Of a stretch of DNA of 32,492 nt, positions 2,632-21,865 are shown in pieces. The notes beneath the pieces were generated by a model. That model had not been told where the DNA came from, did not search any database, and was given only the letters and a program-made list of their open reading frames with translations. The first letter of the stretch is position 1. Each line of letters starts with the position of its first letter. The DNA comes from Thiomargarita sp. (GTDB taxonomy: Bacteria > Pseudomonadota > Gammaproteobacteria > Beggiatoales > Beggiatoaceae): contig DYSU01000028.1 in NCBI GenBank assembly GCA_020726335.1, forward strand, positions 1-32,492, read 5' to 3'. A program made the translations under genes and the position numbers.

Positions 2632-3939
2632 TTAGCCAAAAATATCATGGGTAATGTTGGCAAACCAACTGTACGCATAGTGTACTTCACGGGCTTTTTG
2701 TTCAGGTGTGGCATCGGCTGGGGTTAAACCACCTGAAACTTGGGTGATGGTTTCACCTTCCAAACGATACACGGCAGTCACAGAAATACCATAGTTAGGG
2801 CCGATGATGCTGTAACAGGTATTGACATAGGCAGGTGTCACCATTTCTTTGCCTTGCAAGGAAGCGATCACGGCAGTGGCACACACTTTGGCTTGTGAGC
2901 TGGCAGAATAGGCTGATTTTGGCATGTCAGTGGCAATACATGCGTCGCCAATCACATACACGCCTTTATGCACGCTTGATTCAAAGGTTTGTTTGTTGAC
3001 AGGACACCAACCTGATTCATTGGTCAAACCCGCTTGGTGTGCAATTTTGCACGCCACTTGAGGCGGGATCACATTCAACACATCGGCTTTGATGACATCT
3101 TCCATTTCGCCTGCGGTCACGGTTTTGGTTGTGGCATCAATTTTAACCACTTTACCACCGCCGCTGGCGGGCCGCCATTCAATCAAACTGCCTTCATTTT
3201 TGCCATTTTGCTCAATATCATAGCCGTATAACTCTTTCCAACCTTGGGTAAATAAACCTTGTTTGGAGAATTTATCACTGGCATCTAAAATCAATACTTT
3301 AGATTTGGGTTTGTTGTTTTTCAGATAATGCGCGATTTGGCTGGCACGTTCATAAGGTCCAGGTGGGCAACGGAAAGGGCTGGTGGGTGGGCAAATGACC
3401 ACAGTGCCACCGTCGGCCATTTCTTCCAATTGCTTGCGCAATAACGCTGTTTGTGGACCTGCTTTCCATGCGTGCGGAATGGTTTCAGAGGCTTTTTCAT
3501 CGTAACCTTCAATTGCATCCCATTTAAAACCGACACCAGGGGAAACCACAATGCGGTCAGCGGTAAAATCACCCGATTTAGCGGTGGTCACTTTTTTGGT
3601 GGCCGCATCAATGGCGGTGACTTCATCAATCACCACTTTAACGCCATGTTTGCCTAAACCGTCGTAGCCAAATTTAATGCTGTCTAAACTGCGGTCGCCG
3701 TTCAACACTTCATTGCTCATAAAACAAGTGTGGTAATCGGCATTTTTTTCAATCAAGGTCACTTCAACAGAAGGGTCAGCCATGCGAATGTATTTGGCTG
3801 TGGTTGCACCACCGACCCCTCCACCGACAACCACCACTTTTTTGCCTTCACCTTTGGCAATAAAAGGGATGCCAGAAAAGCTGATTGCAGCGGTGCTGGC
3901 AGATAATTTTAAGAAATTTCTACGAGTTATTTGCGTCAT
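2632..3939 (-). CDS. fccB: Flavocytochrome c sulfide dehydrogenase, FAD-binding flavoprotein subunit, Tat-exported
   Basis: A twin-arginine signal is present ([14 protein letters not shown]). The FAD fold motif [16 protein letters not shown] is present. Overall length matches FccB/SoxF-type sulfide dehydrogenases. The ORF-track start at 3954 is a TTG. I prefer the in-frame ATG at 3939, which is preceded by GGAGG with an 8-nt spacer and puts the RR motif near the N-terminus. Confidence 0.85.
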
Positions 3940-11556: not shown

Positions 11557-12600
11557 TTAAATCACCGCCCATTCACCGCGAATTTCGGCCACAGACAATG
11601 GCTTAACCTCAAGAATTTGCTCTGTTTTATCAGGATGTTGCACGCTGATGGCCACTGATTCGGCATCGCGCCCTTGACCAAAACGGGCCACGATTTGTGC
11701 TGCCAAGCGCAAATCATCTTCATCGGCTGTGCCATCCAGCAAGGCCAATGCGCTGGCGTGGTCTATGGCTCTGAGGGTGATAAATTGGTGTTTATAGCCT
11801 TGTAAAAAATTATTTTCGCCTTCTTCTCGGCCAATAATCAGCTTAAAATGCGGACGTGGACGCAAATGTCGCCCGACTTTAAGCAACATGATGTCATCAA
11901 ATGAATAATCACGGCTTTGACGGTGTTGCCATAAATCCACCAATTTATGGCTGTATTGTGCATCCGTGAGAAAACAACAGCCGCCCGCAGGCTGGGCATA
12001 ATCAACAAAACCATAGCGTTTGGCCAGCGCAATCTGTGGTTTACGGCCACGACCGTGAAAATCGCCCAGCAATTCGCGCTCAACCCAACCTTCACGCTCG
12101 GGCAAGGTTTCGGGCAATAATTTGGCTGACAAAGGCCGCAATAAACGCTCGGTTGCACCCGATTGTTTGGCCACCACAGGCAACTTGTTTTTTAATTGCG
12201 AATGGGGGCGTTGACCGATGACTTCCCCCGTGATGATGAAATCAAACCGCTGGCGTTGTAGCCACTCATGGGCTTTTTTCACCATAAAAACTTTACAATC
12301 CAAACAGGGGTTCATGTTCGCACCATAACCATGGCGTGGATTGAGCAATACACTTTTATATTCTTCAATTACATCAACAATATGCAGTTTAATCCCCAAT
12401 TGTTCTGCCACCCACAGCGCATTATTGCGTTTGGGTTTTTTTAGCTCATGTTTGCGAATCGCATGGGTATGGCCTTCTATGCAAAAACCCGTGAAAAAAT
12501 GAATGCCTTCGACATGAATGCCTTGGTCTTGAATCATTTTGGTGGCCAACAGAGAATCTAAACCACCAGAAATCAATGAAATGGCTTTGCGTTGTGTCAT
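11557..12600 (-). CDS. PP-loop superfamily ATPase, MnmA/ThiI-like putative tRNA sulfurtransferase, specific family unresolved
   Basis: The N-terminal PP-loop is [12 protein letters not shown]. The downstream NPCLDCK and ITGE motifs align with the MnmA layout NPD..C and ATGHY. There is no THUMP or rhodanese domain. The length is 347 aa. Confidence 0.5.
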
Positions 12601-12611
12601 GTTCTTGTCCC

Positions 12612-12659
12612 AAAAAAGAAGGCTTGTAATCTGAGAAAAACCCCAGTTTTACAAGCCTT
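12612..12659 (-). terminator. Intrinsic-terminator-like hairpin plus U-run, 12 nt upstream of the PP-loop gene start codon
   Basis: A perfect 11-bp inverted repeat (AAGGCTTGTAA at 12619-12629, TTACAAGCCTT at 12649-12659) has a 19-nt loop. On the minus strand it is followed by C + T6 (plus-strand A6 at 12612-12617), then GGGACAAGAAC-ATG. Confidence 0.45.
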
Positions 12660-12815
12660 GGTCTTATTTCCTATATTTTTTAATATCAGAATAAATAATT
12701 TTATTGTTATTTTATTTCATTAGAGTTGACTAATATACTAAGTTCAAGCATAATATATCCATGCTTGATTGTTTAGACAGTCATGAAAGACTCCTCCATC
12801 CTCCTTTGGTGGTTT

Positions 12816-12851
12816 GGCGCGGCACCTTGAAAAAACGCCGCGCCCTTTTTT
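12816..12851 (+). terminator. Rho-independent terminator, plus strand
   Basis: An 8-bp GC stem (GGCGCGGC at 12816-12823, GCCGCGCC at 12837-12844) has a 13-nt loop. It is followed by C + T6 (12846-12851). There is no annotated plus-strand gene upstream, which implies a short transcript. Confidence 0.55.
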
Positions 12852-12949
12852 AATGCTTAGAAACAAGCAGTTCCCAACACCTCCAACTCAAGCATTTTGA
12901 CACTTCTCGTAATAAAATTCAAATTGATTTAAAACATTTTTTACAAGGC

Positions 12950-13981
12950 ATGGATTCATGCAAGTTATTAATGAACGAATTTAAGGTGCTTATGTATCTA
13001 TTAGCGGGCGACTTGGGTGGCACAAAAACCTTATTGTGTCTGGTTGAATACAAAAATCAACAGCAATGGCAAGTCCTTTATCAACAAAAATTCACATCGA
13101 ATCAATACGCGCAGTTTGATGATTTAATAGACGATTTTATCAAAAACCCCGCCGTTCATGATAAAAATATCCATGCGGCTTGTCTGGTTGTTGCAGGCCC
13201 TGTTTTCAGTAAAAAACAGCAACAAACGGCAAAAATTACCTATTTGCCATGGGTTTTAAATAACCAGCAATTGGCGAAAAAATTTAACTTAAATCAAGTT
13301 AAATTGCTCAATGATTTTCAAGGCATTGGCCATGGTATCCCCGCCTTGCGGACAAAGGATTTGGTTTGTTTACAACAAGGCCAAGTGCAACCCCACAGCC
13401 CTTGCGCTGTCATCGGCGCAGGCACAGGCTTGGGTGAAGCCATGGTGATGCCAACACGGGTGTTGCCGTCTGAAGGCGGCCACATGGGCTTTGCACCTGA
13501 AACGCCGCAACAAACGGATTTGCTTCGCTATTTACAAACAAAATATTCGCGTGTCAGTTATCAAGAATTATTGTCAGGCCAAGGCTTGGTCAACATTTAT
13601 CAATTTTTGCGCGCCACTCAAGCAGGCAAACCCCAAGCAACGGTTGAAGCTGAAATGCAACAACACGACCCTGCAACCGTCATCAGCCAACATGCTTTGG
13701 CAGGTGATGATGATTTAGCGGTCAAAACCTTTGAATTATTTGCCCAAATTTACGCCTCACAAGCGGCCAACTTGGCTTTGACTTGTTTGGCTTATGGTGG
13801 GGTCTATGTCGCAGGTGGCATTGCCGCTAAAAATCTAAAGTTTTTTCAACAACCTGCATTCTTGCAAGCCTTTTTAGCCAAACAACCCATGCGCCATTTG
13901 CTCGAACAAATGCCCTTATATGTGATTAAAAATCAAGAAGTTGGCTTGCTGGGTGCGATTTTAGTGGCAGGGCAAGCATGA
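12950..13981 (+). CDS. glk: Glucokinase
   Basis: The LAGDLGGTKT ATP-binding motif of Glk-family glucokinases is near the N-terminus. The overall length is right. The start is uncertain. ATG 12992 (MYLLAGDLGG..., preceded by AAGGTG) gives the canonical N-terminus. ATG 12950 is the longest ORF. Confidence 0.8.
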   Translation: MDSCKLLMNEFKVLMYLLAGDLGGTKTLLCLVEYKNQQQWQVLYQQKFTSNQYAQFDDLIDDFIKNPAVHDKNIHAACLVVAGPVFSKKQQQTAKITYLPWVLNNQQLAKKFNLNQVKLLNDFQGIGHGIPALRTKDLVCLQQGQVQPHSPCAVIGAGTGLGEAMVMPTRVLPSEGGHMGFAPETPQQTDLLRYLQTKYSRVSYQELLSGQGLVNIYQFLRATQAGKPQATVEAEMQQHDPATVISQHALAGDDDLAVKTFELFAQIYASQAANLALTCLAYGGVYVAGGIAAKNLKFFQQPAFLQAFLAKQPMRHLLEQMPLYVIKNQEVGLLGAILVAGQA

Positions 13982-14086
13982 GCCATGATGCCCGTGCAAT
14001 TGTGGTCAAAGCACAACCCCGCCAGTGATTCCCTAAAACGGCAAAATGTTATACGCTTGTGGTTTTAAAAACCAAAGGAGTGTTGC

Positions 14087-18848: not shown

Positions 18849-19718
18849 TTGAATGCTCATTTCAAACGCAATGGTGTCAGGCTTTATCTGGGTGATGTAA
18901 TTGATGTATTAAAGCAATTACCCGATGAAAGTGTTGACCTGATATTTGCTGATCCACCCTATAACTTGTCAAATGACGGTTTTACTTGCTATGCAGGCAA
19001 ACGGGTCAGTGTTAATAAAGGAAACTGGGATAAGAGCCGAGGCATCAATACAGATTTTGAGTTCCATTATAATTGGTTACAAGCTTGTAGGCGCGTACTA
19101 AAACCCAATGCTTCATTGTGGCTATCTGGAACATATCATTCAATATATGCTTGTGGTTATGCTATTCAACAGCAAGGTTGGCACATTATTAATGATATTT
19201 GTTGGTTTAAACCCAACGCTACACCCAACTTATCATGTCGTATGTTTACCGCAAGTCATGAAACCCTGCTTTGGATAAGAAAAGATAAGAAAGCAAAACA
19301 CGTTTTTAACTATGAGGTAATGAAAAATGGTGATTTCCCAGATGATTTAATAAAAAAGCCCAATAAACAAATGCGAAGTATTTGGGCAATTAGTACCCCA
19401 AAAAATACAGAAAAAAGACATGGTAAACATCCTACACAAAAACCTGAATCATTATTGGACAGAATTATCCTTGCTTCATCAAATGAAAATGATATTGTAC
19501 TTGACCCCTTTTGTGGTAGTGCGACAACAGGTGTTTGTGCTTTAAGACATCATCGTCGATTTATTGGTATTGATAATAACAGTGAGTATTTAAACAATCT
19601 GGCCATTAAAAGATTAGGTGATGTAGTTGATGAAAATCAAGCATTCTTTATTAGAGAACAACAAACGGAATATCGTTTTGATACATTGGATGGTTTATTT
19701 GAAAATAAAAGGACTTAA
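18849..19718 (+). CDS. Beta-class DNA methyltransferase (DPPY motif, N6-adenine or N4-cytosine), methyltransferase of a putative Type II R-M pair
   Basis: Motif IV DPPY is at residues 35-38 (LIFADPPYNLSNDG). The AdoMet motif DPFCGSATTG is near the C-terminus, which gives beta-class order. The TTG start at 18849 lies 8 nt after AGGAAG. The gene is AT-rich relative to its flanks. Confidence 0.8.
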   Translation: MNAHFKRNGVRLYLGDVIDVLKQLPDESVDLIFADPPYNLSNDGFTCYAGKRVSVNKGNWDKSRGINTDFEFHYNWLQACRRVLKPNASLWLSGTYHSIYACGYAIQQQGWHIINDICWFKPNATPNLSCRMFTASHETLLWIRKDKKAKHVFNYEVMKNGDFPDDLIKKPNKQMRSIWAISTPKNTEKRHGKHPTQKPESLLDRIILASSNENDIVLDPFCGSATTGVCALRHHRRFIGIDNNSEYLNNLAIKRLGDVVDENQAFFIREQQTEYRFDTLDGLFENKRT

Positions 19719-19720
19719 CA

Positions 19721-20329
19721 ATGGAAAGAAAAGAAGCTATTGCCCGTTTAAAAACGATTGTTGGCCAAGAGTTGCATCATATTGCCAAACAATATAATGT
19801 CACAGTAAATAAGGATGGTAAAGTTAATAAAGGTTGGGCAGGTCATATTTTTGAAAGATTTTTAGAATTACCTATTAATTCTGCCCAGTCTCCCAATTTT
19901 GGTTCATGGGAACTTAAATCAATACCCATAAAAACACTAAAAAATGGTAAGAAAGTGATTAAAGAAACAATGGCAATCACCATGATTGATCCAATCAATG
20001 TTTGTCAAAAAGATTTTGTAGACAGTCATTTGTTAGCGAAATTAAAAAAAGTGGTGCTTGTGGCCAGAACGGTAGGACAGACTGTTGATGATCCCAGTTA
20101 TATCCATTCGATTATTGAGTTTGATTTACAGGGTGAACTGTATCATAAGGTAAAAACTGATTATGACCTTATCAGAGAGATTCTACTTGATCCAAAACAG
20201 GGATTTGATTCATTAACTGGAAAGATGGGTGTTTATATACAGCCAAGAACCAAGGGGACTGGGCATGGCTCAAAAACGCGTGCATTTTATGCACGAAAAA
20301 AGTTTTTACAAGCGTTTATTAGAATTTAA
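19721..20329 (+). CDS. MutH/Sau3AI-family (PD-(D/E)xK) endonuclease, single domain, putative GATC-specific nuclease of the R-M pair
   Basis: KGWAGHIFERFLELP..SPNFGSWELKSIPIK aligns with the MutH core KGWxGxLLExxLG...DFxxxGxELKTIP. The C-terminus FYARKKFLQAFIR resembles MutH FYLKKNFTSALLARHF. The ATG lies 2 nt after the methyltransferase stop, with AAAGGA upstream. The gene is AT-rich. Confidence 0.7.
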   Translation: MERKEAIARLKTIVGQELHHIAKQYNVTVNKDGKVNKGWAGHIFERFLELPINSAQSPNFGSWELKSIPIKTLKNGKKVIKETMAITMIDPINVCQKDFVDSHLLAKLKKVVLVARTVGQTVDDPSYIHSIIEFDLQGELYHKVKTDYDLIREILLDPKQGFDSLTGKMGVYIQPRTKGTGHGSKTRAFYARKKFLQAFIRI

Positions 20330-20353: not shown

Positions 20354-21865
20354 ATGGATTTTAGCATCAAAAGTGGGCATGTGGAAAAACAACGGGTGGC
20401 TTGTTTGGTCATTGGGGTGTATGAACCCCGTCGTTTGACGGATACGGGGCTGTTGGTTGACCATTTCAGCCAACAATATTTATCATCAATTTTGCGCTGT
20501 GGTGATATTGAAGGCAAATTAGGCCAAACATTGTTGTTGCACCAAGTTCCCAACATTTTGGCACAACGGGTGTTGCTCATCGGCTGTGGTCGAGAACGTG
20601 AATTGACCTTGCAACATTACCGTAAAATTTTACATAAAATGGTCAGCGTGCTAAACCAAGCCCACATCAGCGATGTTGCCTGCTATTTACCTGAAATCAA
20701 TGTCAAAAATAAATCGCTTTATTGGCGTATTTCTGATGCCATTTGCACCATCAATGATGCGTTGTATCAATTTGAAGCGTTAAAAACCATTAAAAAGAAA
20801 AAAGCCCCCAGCTTGAAACGGATGTCTTTTTTTGTCAATTCACGGCGGGAACTGGATAAAACCGACAGCATTTTAGCGCAAAGTTATGCCATTTCTGCGG
20901 GAATTAAATTGGCCAAAGATTTGGGCAACACACCACCGAACATTTGCACCCCCAGTTATTTGGCCAAACATGCCAAACGAATGGAGTATGATTTTAATCA
21001 AAACCTCCGTTGCACCGTATTGGAAACTGAAGACATGGAAAAATTGAACATGGGCGGGGTGTTGGCCGTGGCCAAAGGCAGCAATGAAGCCCCTAAATTC
21101 ATCGTGTTGGACTACAAAGGCACCGATGAAAGTGTTGCGCCGATCGCGTTGGTGGGCAAAGGCGTGACCTTTGACAGCGGCGGCATTTCATTAAAACCTG
21201 CGGCCAAAATGGATGAAATGAAATACGACATGAGCGGCGCGGCGGCGGTGTTAGGCACAATGCAGGCGGTGGCTGAACTCAGTCTGCCGCTGAATATAAT
21301 GGCCGTGATTCCTGCGGTGGAAAACCTGCCCAGTGGCCATGCCACCCGTCCGGGTGATATTATTGTCACCGCTTCAGGGCAAACGGTGGAAGTTTTAAAT
21401 ACGGATGCCGAAGGCCGTTTGATTTTAGCCGATGCGTTGCACTATTGTCAGCAATTTAACCCCAGTACAGTGATTGATGTCGCCACGTTGACGGGTGCCT
21501 GCATTGTCGCTTTGGGGCGTGAACTGGCCGCTGTCATCGGCAACCATTCTGTTTTGGTCAACAATTTATTGCGCGCAGGCGAAGCCTGTGGTGACCGTGT
21601 GTGGGAACTGCCCTTGTTGGATGAATATCAAGATTTGATGAAAAGCCCATTTGCCGACATGGCCAACATCAGCAACGACAACGCAGCGGGCGCAGGCACG
21701 ATCACAGGCGCGTGTTTTTTGTCGCGGTTTACGGAAAAAATGGACTGGGCGCATTTGGACATCGCAGGCGTTGCATGGAGAAGTGGTGCGAAAAAAGGGG
21801 CGACAGGTCGGCCTGTTCGTTTACTCATCCAGTATTTATTCAATATAATACAACAACCTGCATAG
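20354..21865 (+). CDS. pepA: Leucyl aminopeptidase (cytosol aminopeptidase)
   Basis: MDFSIKSGHVEKQRVACLVIGVYE aligns with the E. coli PepA N-terminus. The metal-site motif NTDAEGRL is present. The start is at ATG 20354, not the upstream ORF-track start. Confidence 0.9.
   Translation: MDFSIKSGHVEKQRVACLVIGVYEPRRLTDTGLLVDHFSQQYLSSILRCGDIEGKLGQTLLLHQVPNILAQRVLLIGCGRERELTLQHYRKILHKMVSVLNQAHISDVACYLPEINVKNKSLYWRISDAICTINDALYQFEALKTIKKKKAPSLKRMSFFVNSRRELDKTDSILAQSYAISAGIKLAKDLGNTPPNICTPSYLAKHAKRMEYDFNQNLRCTVLETEDMEKLNMGGVLAVAKGSNEAPKFIVLDYKGTDESVAPIALVGKGVTFDSGGISLKPAAKMDEMKYDMSGAAAVLGTMQAVAELSLPLNIMAVIPAVENLPSGHATRPGDIIVTASGQTVEVLNTDAEGRLILADALHYCQQFNPSTVIDVATLTGACIVALGRELAAVIGNHSVLVNNLLRAGEACGDRVWELPLLDEYQDLMKSPFADMANISNDNAAGAGTITGACFLSRFTEKMDWAHLDIAGVAWRSGAKKGATGRPVRLLIQYLFNIIQQPA

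Follow-up and report, generated by a model that had tools for sequence, protein, structure and literature searches.

A candidate anti-Shine-Dalgarno small RNA upstream of glk in Thiomargarita sp. and its kinship with the S17/RF02278/NmsR group

RESULTS

Features of the glk upstream region

We examined a 32,492-nucleotide (nt) stretch of DNA from Thiomargarita sp. (contig DYSU01000028.1; this whole stretch is hereafter called the window), in which a model reading the sequence alone had proposed a candidate small RNA (sRNA) gene upstream of the glucokinase gene glk (hereafter, the original prediction). The genes on either side of the sRNA region are divergent: a gene for a ThiI/NFACT-R_2 protein occupies positions 11557 to 12600 on the minus strand and glk lies on the plus strand, in agreement with the earlier statement that no plus-strand gene lies upstream of the terminator. 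The start codon of glk is most likely the ATG at 12992, because a 99%-identical database protein has 329 amino acids; a start at 12950 was rejected in its favor. Measured from the end of the terminator to the ATG at 12992, the distance to glk is 141 nt, which corrects the earlier figure of ~100 nt. The features of the region are as follows (SD, Shine-Dalgarno; SL, stem-loop; locus numbers beginning with L denote related loci described below).

12719 to 12734, no strand assigned: inverted repeat ATTAG-N6-CTAAT, overlapping the -35 element; candidate regulator site.
12726 to 12731, plus strand: -35 element TTGACT (promoter scan; identical in L009, L010, L029, and L059).
12744 to 12768, no strand assigned: palindrome TCAAGCAT/ATGCTTGA, spanning the -10 element and positions +1 to +8.
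12749 to 12754, plus strand: -10 element CATAAT, 17-nt spacer (promoter scan; also L009, L010, L029, and L059).
12761 to 12851, plus strand: predicted primary sRNA transcript of ~91 nt (from the fold z score, the alignment to NmsRb, and family model R1).
12764 to 12785, plus strand: 5' hairpin SL1, UGAUUGU/ACAGUCA, closed by C12764-G12785, loop UUAG.
12791 to 12812, plus strand: 22-nt core CUCCUCCAUCCUCCUUUGGUGG, identical in L009 and L010.
12791 to 12797, plus strand: anti-SD site 1, CUCCUCC, single-stranded between SL1 and SL2.
12796 to 12812, plus strand: SL2, CCAUC/GGUGG, with anti-SD site 2, CUCCUUU (12801 to 12807), in its loop (register of the RF02278 alignment).
12816 to 12851, plus strand: intrinsic terminator with an 8-bp GC stem, a 13-nt loop, C, and U6, preceded by UUU.

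The terminator was found exactly as first described, i.e., a stem formed by GGCGCGGC (12816 to 12823) and GCCGCGCC (12837 to 12844), a 13-nt loop, a C, and T6 (12846 to 12851), and the CU-rich motif GACTCCTCCATCCTCCTTTGGTGG is likewise present. Our own terminator scan missed this hairpin because it allowed only loops of 3 to 8 nt. The hairpin is GC-rich and carries a T-run on the plus strand, with no such run on the minus strand. As for the promoter, both TTGACT (12726 to 12731) and TAATAT (12751 to 12756) occur as originally reported; the -35 assignment stands, whereas the TAATAT -10 element, with its 19-nt spacing, gives way to CATAAT at the canonical spacing of 17 nt, a combination that scores 10/12 in a promoter scan and is kept in relatives. 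From the geometry of this promoter, transcription is predicted to start at ~12761.

The 91-nt RNA that would result has a fold z score of -2.7. From 5' to 3', its predicted structure consists of a hairpin, a CU-rich linker that is single-stranded, a second, small hairpin whose loop is CU-rich, and the terminator. Anti-SD site 1 is unpaired, or mostly so, in the predicted folds; the register given for SL2 is taken from the Rfam alignment of RF02278, and RNAfold favors a slightly shifted one. The UUU-hairpin-U6 arrangement at the 3' end is a probable Hfq-binding module. The window holds a single copy of the core (exact search) and of the family covariance model R1 described below, which scores 67.8 bits (E = 1e-15) at 12752 to 12850, the next best match in the window reaching 13 bits.

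Conservation in relatives identified through glk

A protein search with glk returned sequences of 99%, 67%, and 63% identity and none further above 48%, and a scan of genome contigs with glk yielded only relatives of ≤35% identity. The contigs of the three close relatives are L008, in which the locus is identical, L009 (67%), and L010 (63%), the last of which retains the synteny of a ThiI-like gene and glk. An identical locus is contained in the data set SRR8200784. Since L009 and L010 were found via the protein, conservation of the RNA in them constitutes unbiased evidence. In both, the intergenic region has diverged save for one block, which comprises an A/T-rich upstream stretch, TTGACT, CATAAT, SL1, and 48 nt around the core, each of them unchanged, with glk located 123 to 134 nt 3' of the element on the same strand. 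Thus, the promoter, core, and hairpins are kept in relatives; conservation of the hairpin and CU-rich motif was a check proposed in the original prediction. The differences that do occur respect the structure: a 2-nt insertion in the SL1 loop of L009 and L010 extends the stem by one C-G pair, and the terminator stem GGCGCGGC/GCCGCGCC is changed in L010 to GGCGCGAC/GUCGCGCC, a compensatory replacement of G-C by A-U, while the terminator loop is different in all three of the window, L009, and L010. Downstream of glk, L010 has a tRNA-like sequence (3296 to 3370) in the position held by manC in the window, so synteny on that side of glk is not conserved.

A wider family with two covarying helices

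An exact search with the 22-mer CTCCTCCATCCTCCTTTGGTGG (12791 to 12812) located the core in at least 120 metagenome contigs from many environments, and, among the matches listed, a terminator (stem of ≥6 bp and ≥5 T) follows the core within ~12 nt in 125 of 127 instances. As the search used the exact 22-mer, constancy of the core among these metagenome loci arises at least partly by construction. In a MAFFT alignment of 118 distinct instances (A1), each of the eight terminator pairs shows changes in both partners, and 98% of cells are paired, compared with 28 to 55% when the partner strand is slid; the number of compensated cells is 134, versus 29.6 ± 11.8 in shuffles. On the 5' side, the 38 nt that precede the core fold with a mean of -11.1 kcal/mol, versus -5.0 kcal/mol for shuffled sequences, and 85% of instances reach -6 kcal/mol or lower. 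In SL1, changes on both sides occur at 11 of 11 pairs, with 85% of cells paired (23 to 53% for slid partners) and 359 compensated cells (127 shuffled). These SL1 pair counts derive from a covariance-model alignment, which was used because MAFFT set two subgroups in different registers and which is biased toward the structure of the model; the per-sequence minimum free energies against shuffles provide the independent check.

Three tandem copies of the sRNA occur in each of two loci, L079 (6357 to 6666) and L030 (2 to 454). Those of L079 follow one another at ~100 to 118 nt, and the U-tails of the first two are weak, so that cotranscription is possible; the middle copy of L030 has diverged in site 1, which reads CUACUCC (a one-base change). 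In most family members, the terminator loop is C-rich (CCCC, UCCCC, or CACCCCCUG; e.g., L036, L048, and L056), which the loop of the window (ACCUUGAAAAAAC) is not. The second loop of Bordetella S17 serves as a third pairing site, Site 3 (PMC11722255), and by analogy the C-rich loops of the family may be functional.

Kinship with described sRNAs

The Rfam comparison suggested in the original prediction was run at a permissive threshold on 801 nt and on the whole window, and gave two plus-strand matches, both sub-threshold. RF02278, "Betaproteobacteria toxic small RNA," matches 12788 to 12851 over its full model (1 to 64) with 32.4 bits (E = 1.5e-4 for the 801 nt and 0.006 for the whole window, where it was the sole relevant match), and RF02877, NmsRb, matches 12762 to 12849 over its full model (1 to 91) with 24.8 bits (E = 0.16). 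Among 20 related loci, RF02278 matches 15, with 28 to 60 bits; L065 passes the gathering score of that family at 59.8 bits, showing that the set grades into RF02278.

RF02278 comprises the Burkholderia double-hairpin sRNAs ncS03, ncS05, ncS27, ncS62, and bdhR1 (Sass et al. 2017, PMC5688073); ncS35 was rejected as a member, as the paper shows it to be unrelated. The CU-rich unpaired stretches of these RNAs are reverse-complementary to ribosome-binding sites (RBSs), overexpression of ncS27 slows growth, a phenotype controlled by its CU-rich region, and the authors remarked on a resemblance to the Neisseria NmsRs (PMC5688073). The window RNA has the two-hairpin layout of RF02278, a small CU-loop hairpin followed by an intrinsic terminator, together with CU-rich sites complementary to RBSs that are predicted to be unpaired (CUCCUCC, 12791 to 12797, and CUCCUUU, 12801 to 12807). 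It differs in having an additional 5' hairpin, SL1, and a gammaproteobacterial rather than a betaproteobacterial host. Several dispersed copies per genome are found in Burkholderia, and the window family has several distinct conserved loci.

Among described RNAs, Bordetella S17 comes closest. RNase E cuts S17 from a 190-nt precursor, and the processed 67-nt form, S17S, differs from Burkholderia bdhR1 by 2 nt, has a 27-nt 5' region reported to be 100% conserved across Betaproteobacteria, and depends on Hfq; it represses translation by pairing with RBSs, and its direct repression of BP2158 was shown with compensatory mutants (Sim et al. 2024, PMC11722255). The paper reports S17 from Betaproteobacteria only and does not mention Gammaproteobacteria (PMC11722255). 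When S17S (UUGUCUCCUCCACCCUCCUCCUUUGGUGGAUUUAGCCCG..., from the supplement of that paper) is set against the window RNA (AAGACUCCUCCAUCCUCCUUUGGUGGUUUGGCGCG...), the cores read UUGUCUCCUCCACCCUCCUCCUUUGGUGGAUUU and AAGACUCCUCCAUCCUCCUUUGGUGGUUU, respectively: site 1, the end of the loop, and the 3' arm are alike, and CUCCUCCA and CCUCCUUUGGUGG are identical. Both RNAs are laid out as a single-stranded CUCCUCC, a CU-loop hairpin ending in CCUCCUUUGGUGG, a U-rich spacer, and an intrinsic terminator. The 27-nt region conserved in Betaproteobacteria is not intact in the window, in which the loop is 3 nt shorter, one C is replaced by U, and the flanks differ. Further differences concern the precursor, in that the window promoter lies just 30 nt 5' of the core and would give a primary RNA of ~90 nt, and the genomic context, which is glk in the window and coq7 for Bordetella S17.

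The sibling sRNAs of Neisseria, known as NmsRA/B, RcoF1/2, or NgncR_162/163 (Rfam RF02877), target the tricarboxylic acid (TCA) cycle and amino-acid transport (PMC5362039, PMC9973317, PMC5449619). Mutating either of their alpha-SD sites abolishes regulation of TCA-cycle targets, and their expression is controlled by RelA (PMC5362039); they also bind Hfq (PMC9973317). The window RNA reproduces their layout, in which, of three stem-loops, the first two are separated by alpha-SD1 and the second carries alpha-SD2 in its loop, so that site 1 corresponds to NmsR alpha-SD1 as well as to Site 1 of S17S, and it shares with NmsR the loop CUCCUUU and the beginning of the terminator, UUGGCGCG. The tandem sibling arrangement of Neisseria is not seen in the window, where the RNA is single copy; L079 and L030 carry tandem triplets.

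The alphaproteobacterial CCUCCUCCC sRNAs (cuckoo, alpha-r14, and CcsR; PMC4615179, PMC8034643) apply the same principle, with C/U-rich anti-SD motifs in loops or linkers and often multiple or tandem copies. Their motif and architecture differ, no homology to the window RNA was detectable, and no Rfam match links them to it; we regard the cuckoo/CcsR families as analogous, not homologous, to the window sRNA. When open-access papers were searched for 13-mers from the core, only eukaryotic primers matched, and the window core is printed in none of these papers.

Genomic contexts of the family

Where the nearest flanking open reading frames (ORFs) were classified by orientation, the four classes were almost equally filled (18, 16, 14, and 14), and across 125 instances the downstream gene shares the strand of the sRNA in about as many cases as it does not. 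At least three contexts recur. In 27 instances the sRNA precedes rplM, encoded on the same strand, by ~100 nt (about 90 to 300 nt) (e.g., L016 8596 to 9250, L037 210 to 817, and L083 9780 to 10397), often after a gene for a CCG/Fe-S protein. In the second context, it has queA on one side (convergent, 19) and tgt on the other (divergent, 12). The third, beside glk, belongs to the clade of the window only (3 instances). Clusters of the proteins L13 and QueA assign several of these loci to Chromatiaceae, Arenicellales, Acidiferrobacteraceae, and unclassified Gammaproteobacteria. By these assignments, the rplM and queA-tgt contexts appear to be conserved sRNA loci across several gammaproteobacterial orders.

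These contexts bear directly on the alternative, also raised in the original prediction, that the element controls glk in cis, as a leader or attenuator, in which case transcripts from TTGACT either stop at the hairpin or read into glk and the short RNA is a by-product. Such a leader would accord with the same-strand location of glk, which follows the element after 141 nt in the window and after 123 to 134 nt in L009 and L010, with the 27 family members that precede rplM by ~100 nt in the same orientation, and with a promoter scan, in which no plus-strand promoter of ≥9/12 was found between 12852 and 12991. A leader would be expected to keep one orientation and a set distance relative to its gene, and this pattern is not observed. 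Instead, the genes that flank the element are oriented at random, evidence against a leader of glk; the downstream gene is found about equally on either strand, and the same RNA converges on queA in 19 loci. Moreover, the terminator is strong (8 GC pairs plus U6), the predicted fold shows no sign of a competing antiterminator pairing, and the homologues act in trans. At the level of the family, the leader alternative is thus not supported, and we consider it improbable for the window as well.

Promoter-associated sequences

Promoters of the window type, TTGACTAATAT...(C/T)ATAAT, also precede the sRNA in L029 and L059, which represent other genomic contexts, and a TTGAC -35 element lies 53 to 78 nt 5' of the core in most family loci. 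In the largest subgroup of the family, the -35 element is followed by a conserved TAT(T/A)AGAAA block, located between the -35 and -10 elements, and the sRNA promoters of the window, L029, and L059 have the block ATTAGnnTTGACTAATAT in common despite their unrelated contexts.

Two inverted repeats overlap the window promoter. The first is the 8-N9-8 palindrome that the original prediction interpreted as the operator of a dimeric repressor. Its arms, TCAAGCAT (12744 to 12751) and ATGCTTGA (12761 to 12768), are present as described, the left overlapping the -10 element and the right coinciding with the predicted 5' end of the RNA, and both are unchanged in L009 and L010, in which the spacer varies. 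The operator interpretation fared less well: a perfect 8-nt inverted repeat with a spacer of 3 to 15 nt occurs in 12% of shuffled intergenic regions, so the palindrome alone is not beyond chance, and it is absent from L029 and L059 despite their having the same promoter type. On sequence comparison, then, the palindrome appears confined to the clade of the window, L009, and L010, where a role as an operator is possible. The second repeat, ATTAG-N6-CTAAT, which straddles the -35 element and is also present in L029 and L059, is an operator candidate at least as good, and the shared ATTAGnnTTGACTAATAT and TAT(T/A)AGAAA blocks suggest a dedicated transcription factor site containing ATTAG.

Neighboring features and host

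Two further hairpins flank the sRNA. Immediately 3' of the sRNA terminator, at 12854 to 12869, lies a small hairpin, TGCTT-AGAAAC-AAGCA, which in L010 reads CACTT...AAGTG with two compensatory changes; it may belong to the 5' region of glk or serve to bind a protein. On the minus strand, 12612 to 12660 form an 11-bp hairpin, AAGGCUUGUAA ... UUACAAGCCUU, with an inner 6-bp helix, followed by CUUUUUU (fold z = -3.0). This hairpin stops ~10 nt short of the ThiI/NFACT-R_2 start codon (ATG, 12600) and is kept in L009 and L010, a C/U change preserving the pairing, and Rfam gave noise only over this interval. It looks like a terminator or attenuator in the leader of the ThiI/NFACT-R_2 gene.

Elsewhere in the window, an N6/N4 DNA methyltransferase gene directly followed by a gene for a MutH/MvaI_BcnI-family endonuclease (18849 to 20329) lies between pcnB and pepA, and the two are probably a type II restriction-modification pair inserted there. 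A match to the Rfam family Ysr276 inside the coding region of pepA (20912 to 21095, minus strand; E = 0.002) scores 24.5 bits against a gathering score of 100 and is most likely spurious. A tRNA scan of the window found none, and blastn of the sRNA against PLSDB plasmids gave no match. Genes of the window encode a flavocytochrome c sulfide dehydrogenase, several c-type cytochromes, and NapC/NirT, and the best named relatives of its MurA (~75% identity) are from Sulfurivermis, Thiohalomonadaceae, "Ca. Venteria," and Thiotrichaceae. By these sequences, the host is a sulfur-oxidizing gammaproteobacterium and not a betaproteobacterium.

DISCUSSION

Our analysis favors, at a probability of roughly three in four, the interpretation that positions 12761 to 12851 of the plus strand encode an independently transcribed, trans-acting sRNA of ~90 nt, a gammaproteobacterial homologue of the S17/RF02278/NmsR group. 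The central proposal of the original prediction, a trans-acting anti-SD sRNA ending at an intrinsic terminator, is thereby strengthened by three kinds of evidence, namely, the conservation of the promoter, core, and hairpins in relatives, the covariation of both variable helices, and the kinship of the sequence to families shown experimentally to occlude RBSs. The anatomy of the element and its independence from neighboring genes are likewise shown by the present data.

In the mechanism that we propose, a sigma-70-type promoter, TTGACT-17-CATAAT, would start transcription near 12761, and the GC hairpin with its U6 tract would end it near 12851. The RNA would fold into the 5' hairpin, a short exposed CUCCUCC, the small hairpin presenting CUCCUUU, and the terminator, and Hfq would probably bind the UUU-hairpin-U6 module and so assist the RNA. 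By homology, both CU-rich sites would act as mimics of the 16S rRNA 3' end and pair with the SD regions of several mRNAs, thereby excluding 30S subunits and repressing translation. Trimming to a double-hairpin RNA of ~60 nt, as in S17 and ncS27, is also possible. The core resembles the anti-SD 3' tail of 16S rRNA (AUCCUCCUU versus AUCACCUCCUUA in 16S), which would explain the strong constraint on the core.

Several points weigh against this interpretation. Both Rfam scores fall below the gathering scores (32.4 versus 50 bits for RF02278 and 24.8 versus 52 bits for NmsRb), and the start site and 3' end of the RNA are predictions from sequence. The SL2 stem is invariant across the family, so that covariation cannot test its pairing and lends it no support, and the independent witnesses of core conservation number only two, L009 and L010. 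Against 30 translation-initiation regions of the window, the seed performed no better than against coding controls (-11.5 versus -11.8 kcal/mol). Finally, some read-through coupling to glk is possible, as the element and glk share a strand in all three members of the clade and no good sigma-70 promoter was found between the terminator and glk. Within the window, the sole notable candidate target is the RBS of manC, the second gene downstream of the sRNA: ACCAAAGGAG (14071 to 14080), which precedes the ATG (14087) by 7 nt, is complementary at all 10 positions to CUCCUUUGGU (12801 to 12810), which covers the SL2 loop and 3' arm. Its significance is marginal, and we treat it as a lead only.

The same resemblance to the anti-SD tail (AUCCUCCUU/AUCACCUCCUUA) raises another reading, about as improbable as the glk leader, in which the RNA is mainly a decoy or sponge, i.e., a mimic of the 16S tail that titrates a protein or competes globally for SD sequences, and not a repressor of specific mRNAs. 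Such a function would accord with the extreme conservation of the core, with the frequent position of the family beside a ribosomal-protein operon, and with the fact that RF02278 RNAs first came to attention through inhibiting growth on expression in E. coli (PMC5688073). It is at odds with the specific targets of the Neisseria and Bordetella homologues, for which there is compensatory-mutation proof, and with the observation that overexpression of S17S is not notably toxic in E. coli (PMC11722255); in addition, nothing in our analysis points to a protein partner.

It is more doubtful still that the element is not a gene at all, being a dispersed repeat of the REP or MITE type, or a bare or bidirectional terminator with a chance CU-rich tract. 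Recurrence of the 22-mer in many contigs could be taken for a dispersed repeat, and the hairpin, located at the 3' end of convergent queA in 19 loci, could terminate queA too. We rejected the repeat-element reading on the grounds of the single copy in 32 kb and the conserved synteny, to which the conservation of the -35 and -10 elements at a fixed distance can be added; the second covarying helix 5' of the core and the lack of a T-run after the hairpin on the minus strand also speak against the element not being a gene. Lastly, an ATG-initiated frame of 30 codons (12761 to 12853) is present as originally described, and the doubt expressed about it proved right: that it encodes a small protein is exceedingly improbable and was rejected, since the frame crosses the terminator stem, is not conserved in L009 and L010, where the 2-nt insertion brings in a TAG after five codons, and begins at the predicted +1, so that no SD sequence can precede it, while the family shows covariation of the RNA type.

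Taking the window element as an independently transcribed sRNA, its gene accounts for what would otherwise be annotated as an orphan terminator, and it ties a poorly sampled sulfur-oxidizing gammaproteobacterium to the regulators of Bordetella, Burkholderia, and Neisseria. It would also extend the S17/BdhR/NmsR group beyond the Betaproteobacteria, where the literature puts it. The analysis further yields material that can be tested directly, including coordinates for the sRNA, promoter, and seed, covariance models with which to map the family, and the manC RBS as a candidate target.

In our view, the wider family is more interesting than the window element itself. We tentatively propose, as a possibility to which we give somewhat less than an even chance, that the window RNA represents an undescribed and very widespread gammaproteobacterial branch of the S17/BdhR/NmsR superfamily, with a near-fixed 22-nt anti-SD core and a few ancient syntenic loci; its hosts would include Chromatiales, Arenicellales, Acidiferrobacterales, and sulfur oxidizers, and its loci would lie directly upstream of rplM-rpsI, between queA and tgt, and, in the window, next to glk. 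Conservation of base-pairing sRNAs does not usually reach beyond a genus or family. If our proposal is true, the superfamily would be among the oldest and broadest lineages of base-pairing sRNAs known, and its loci would suggest a general link of ribosome and tRNA-modification loci to the global control of initiation on mRNAs with strong SD sequences.

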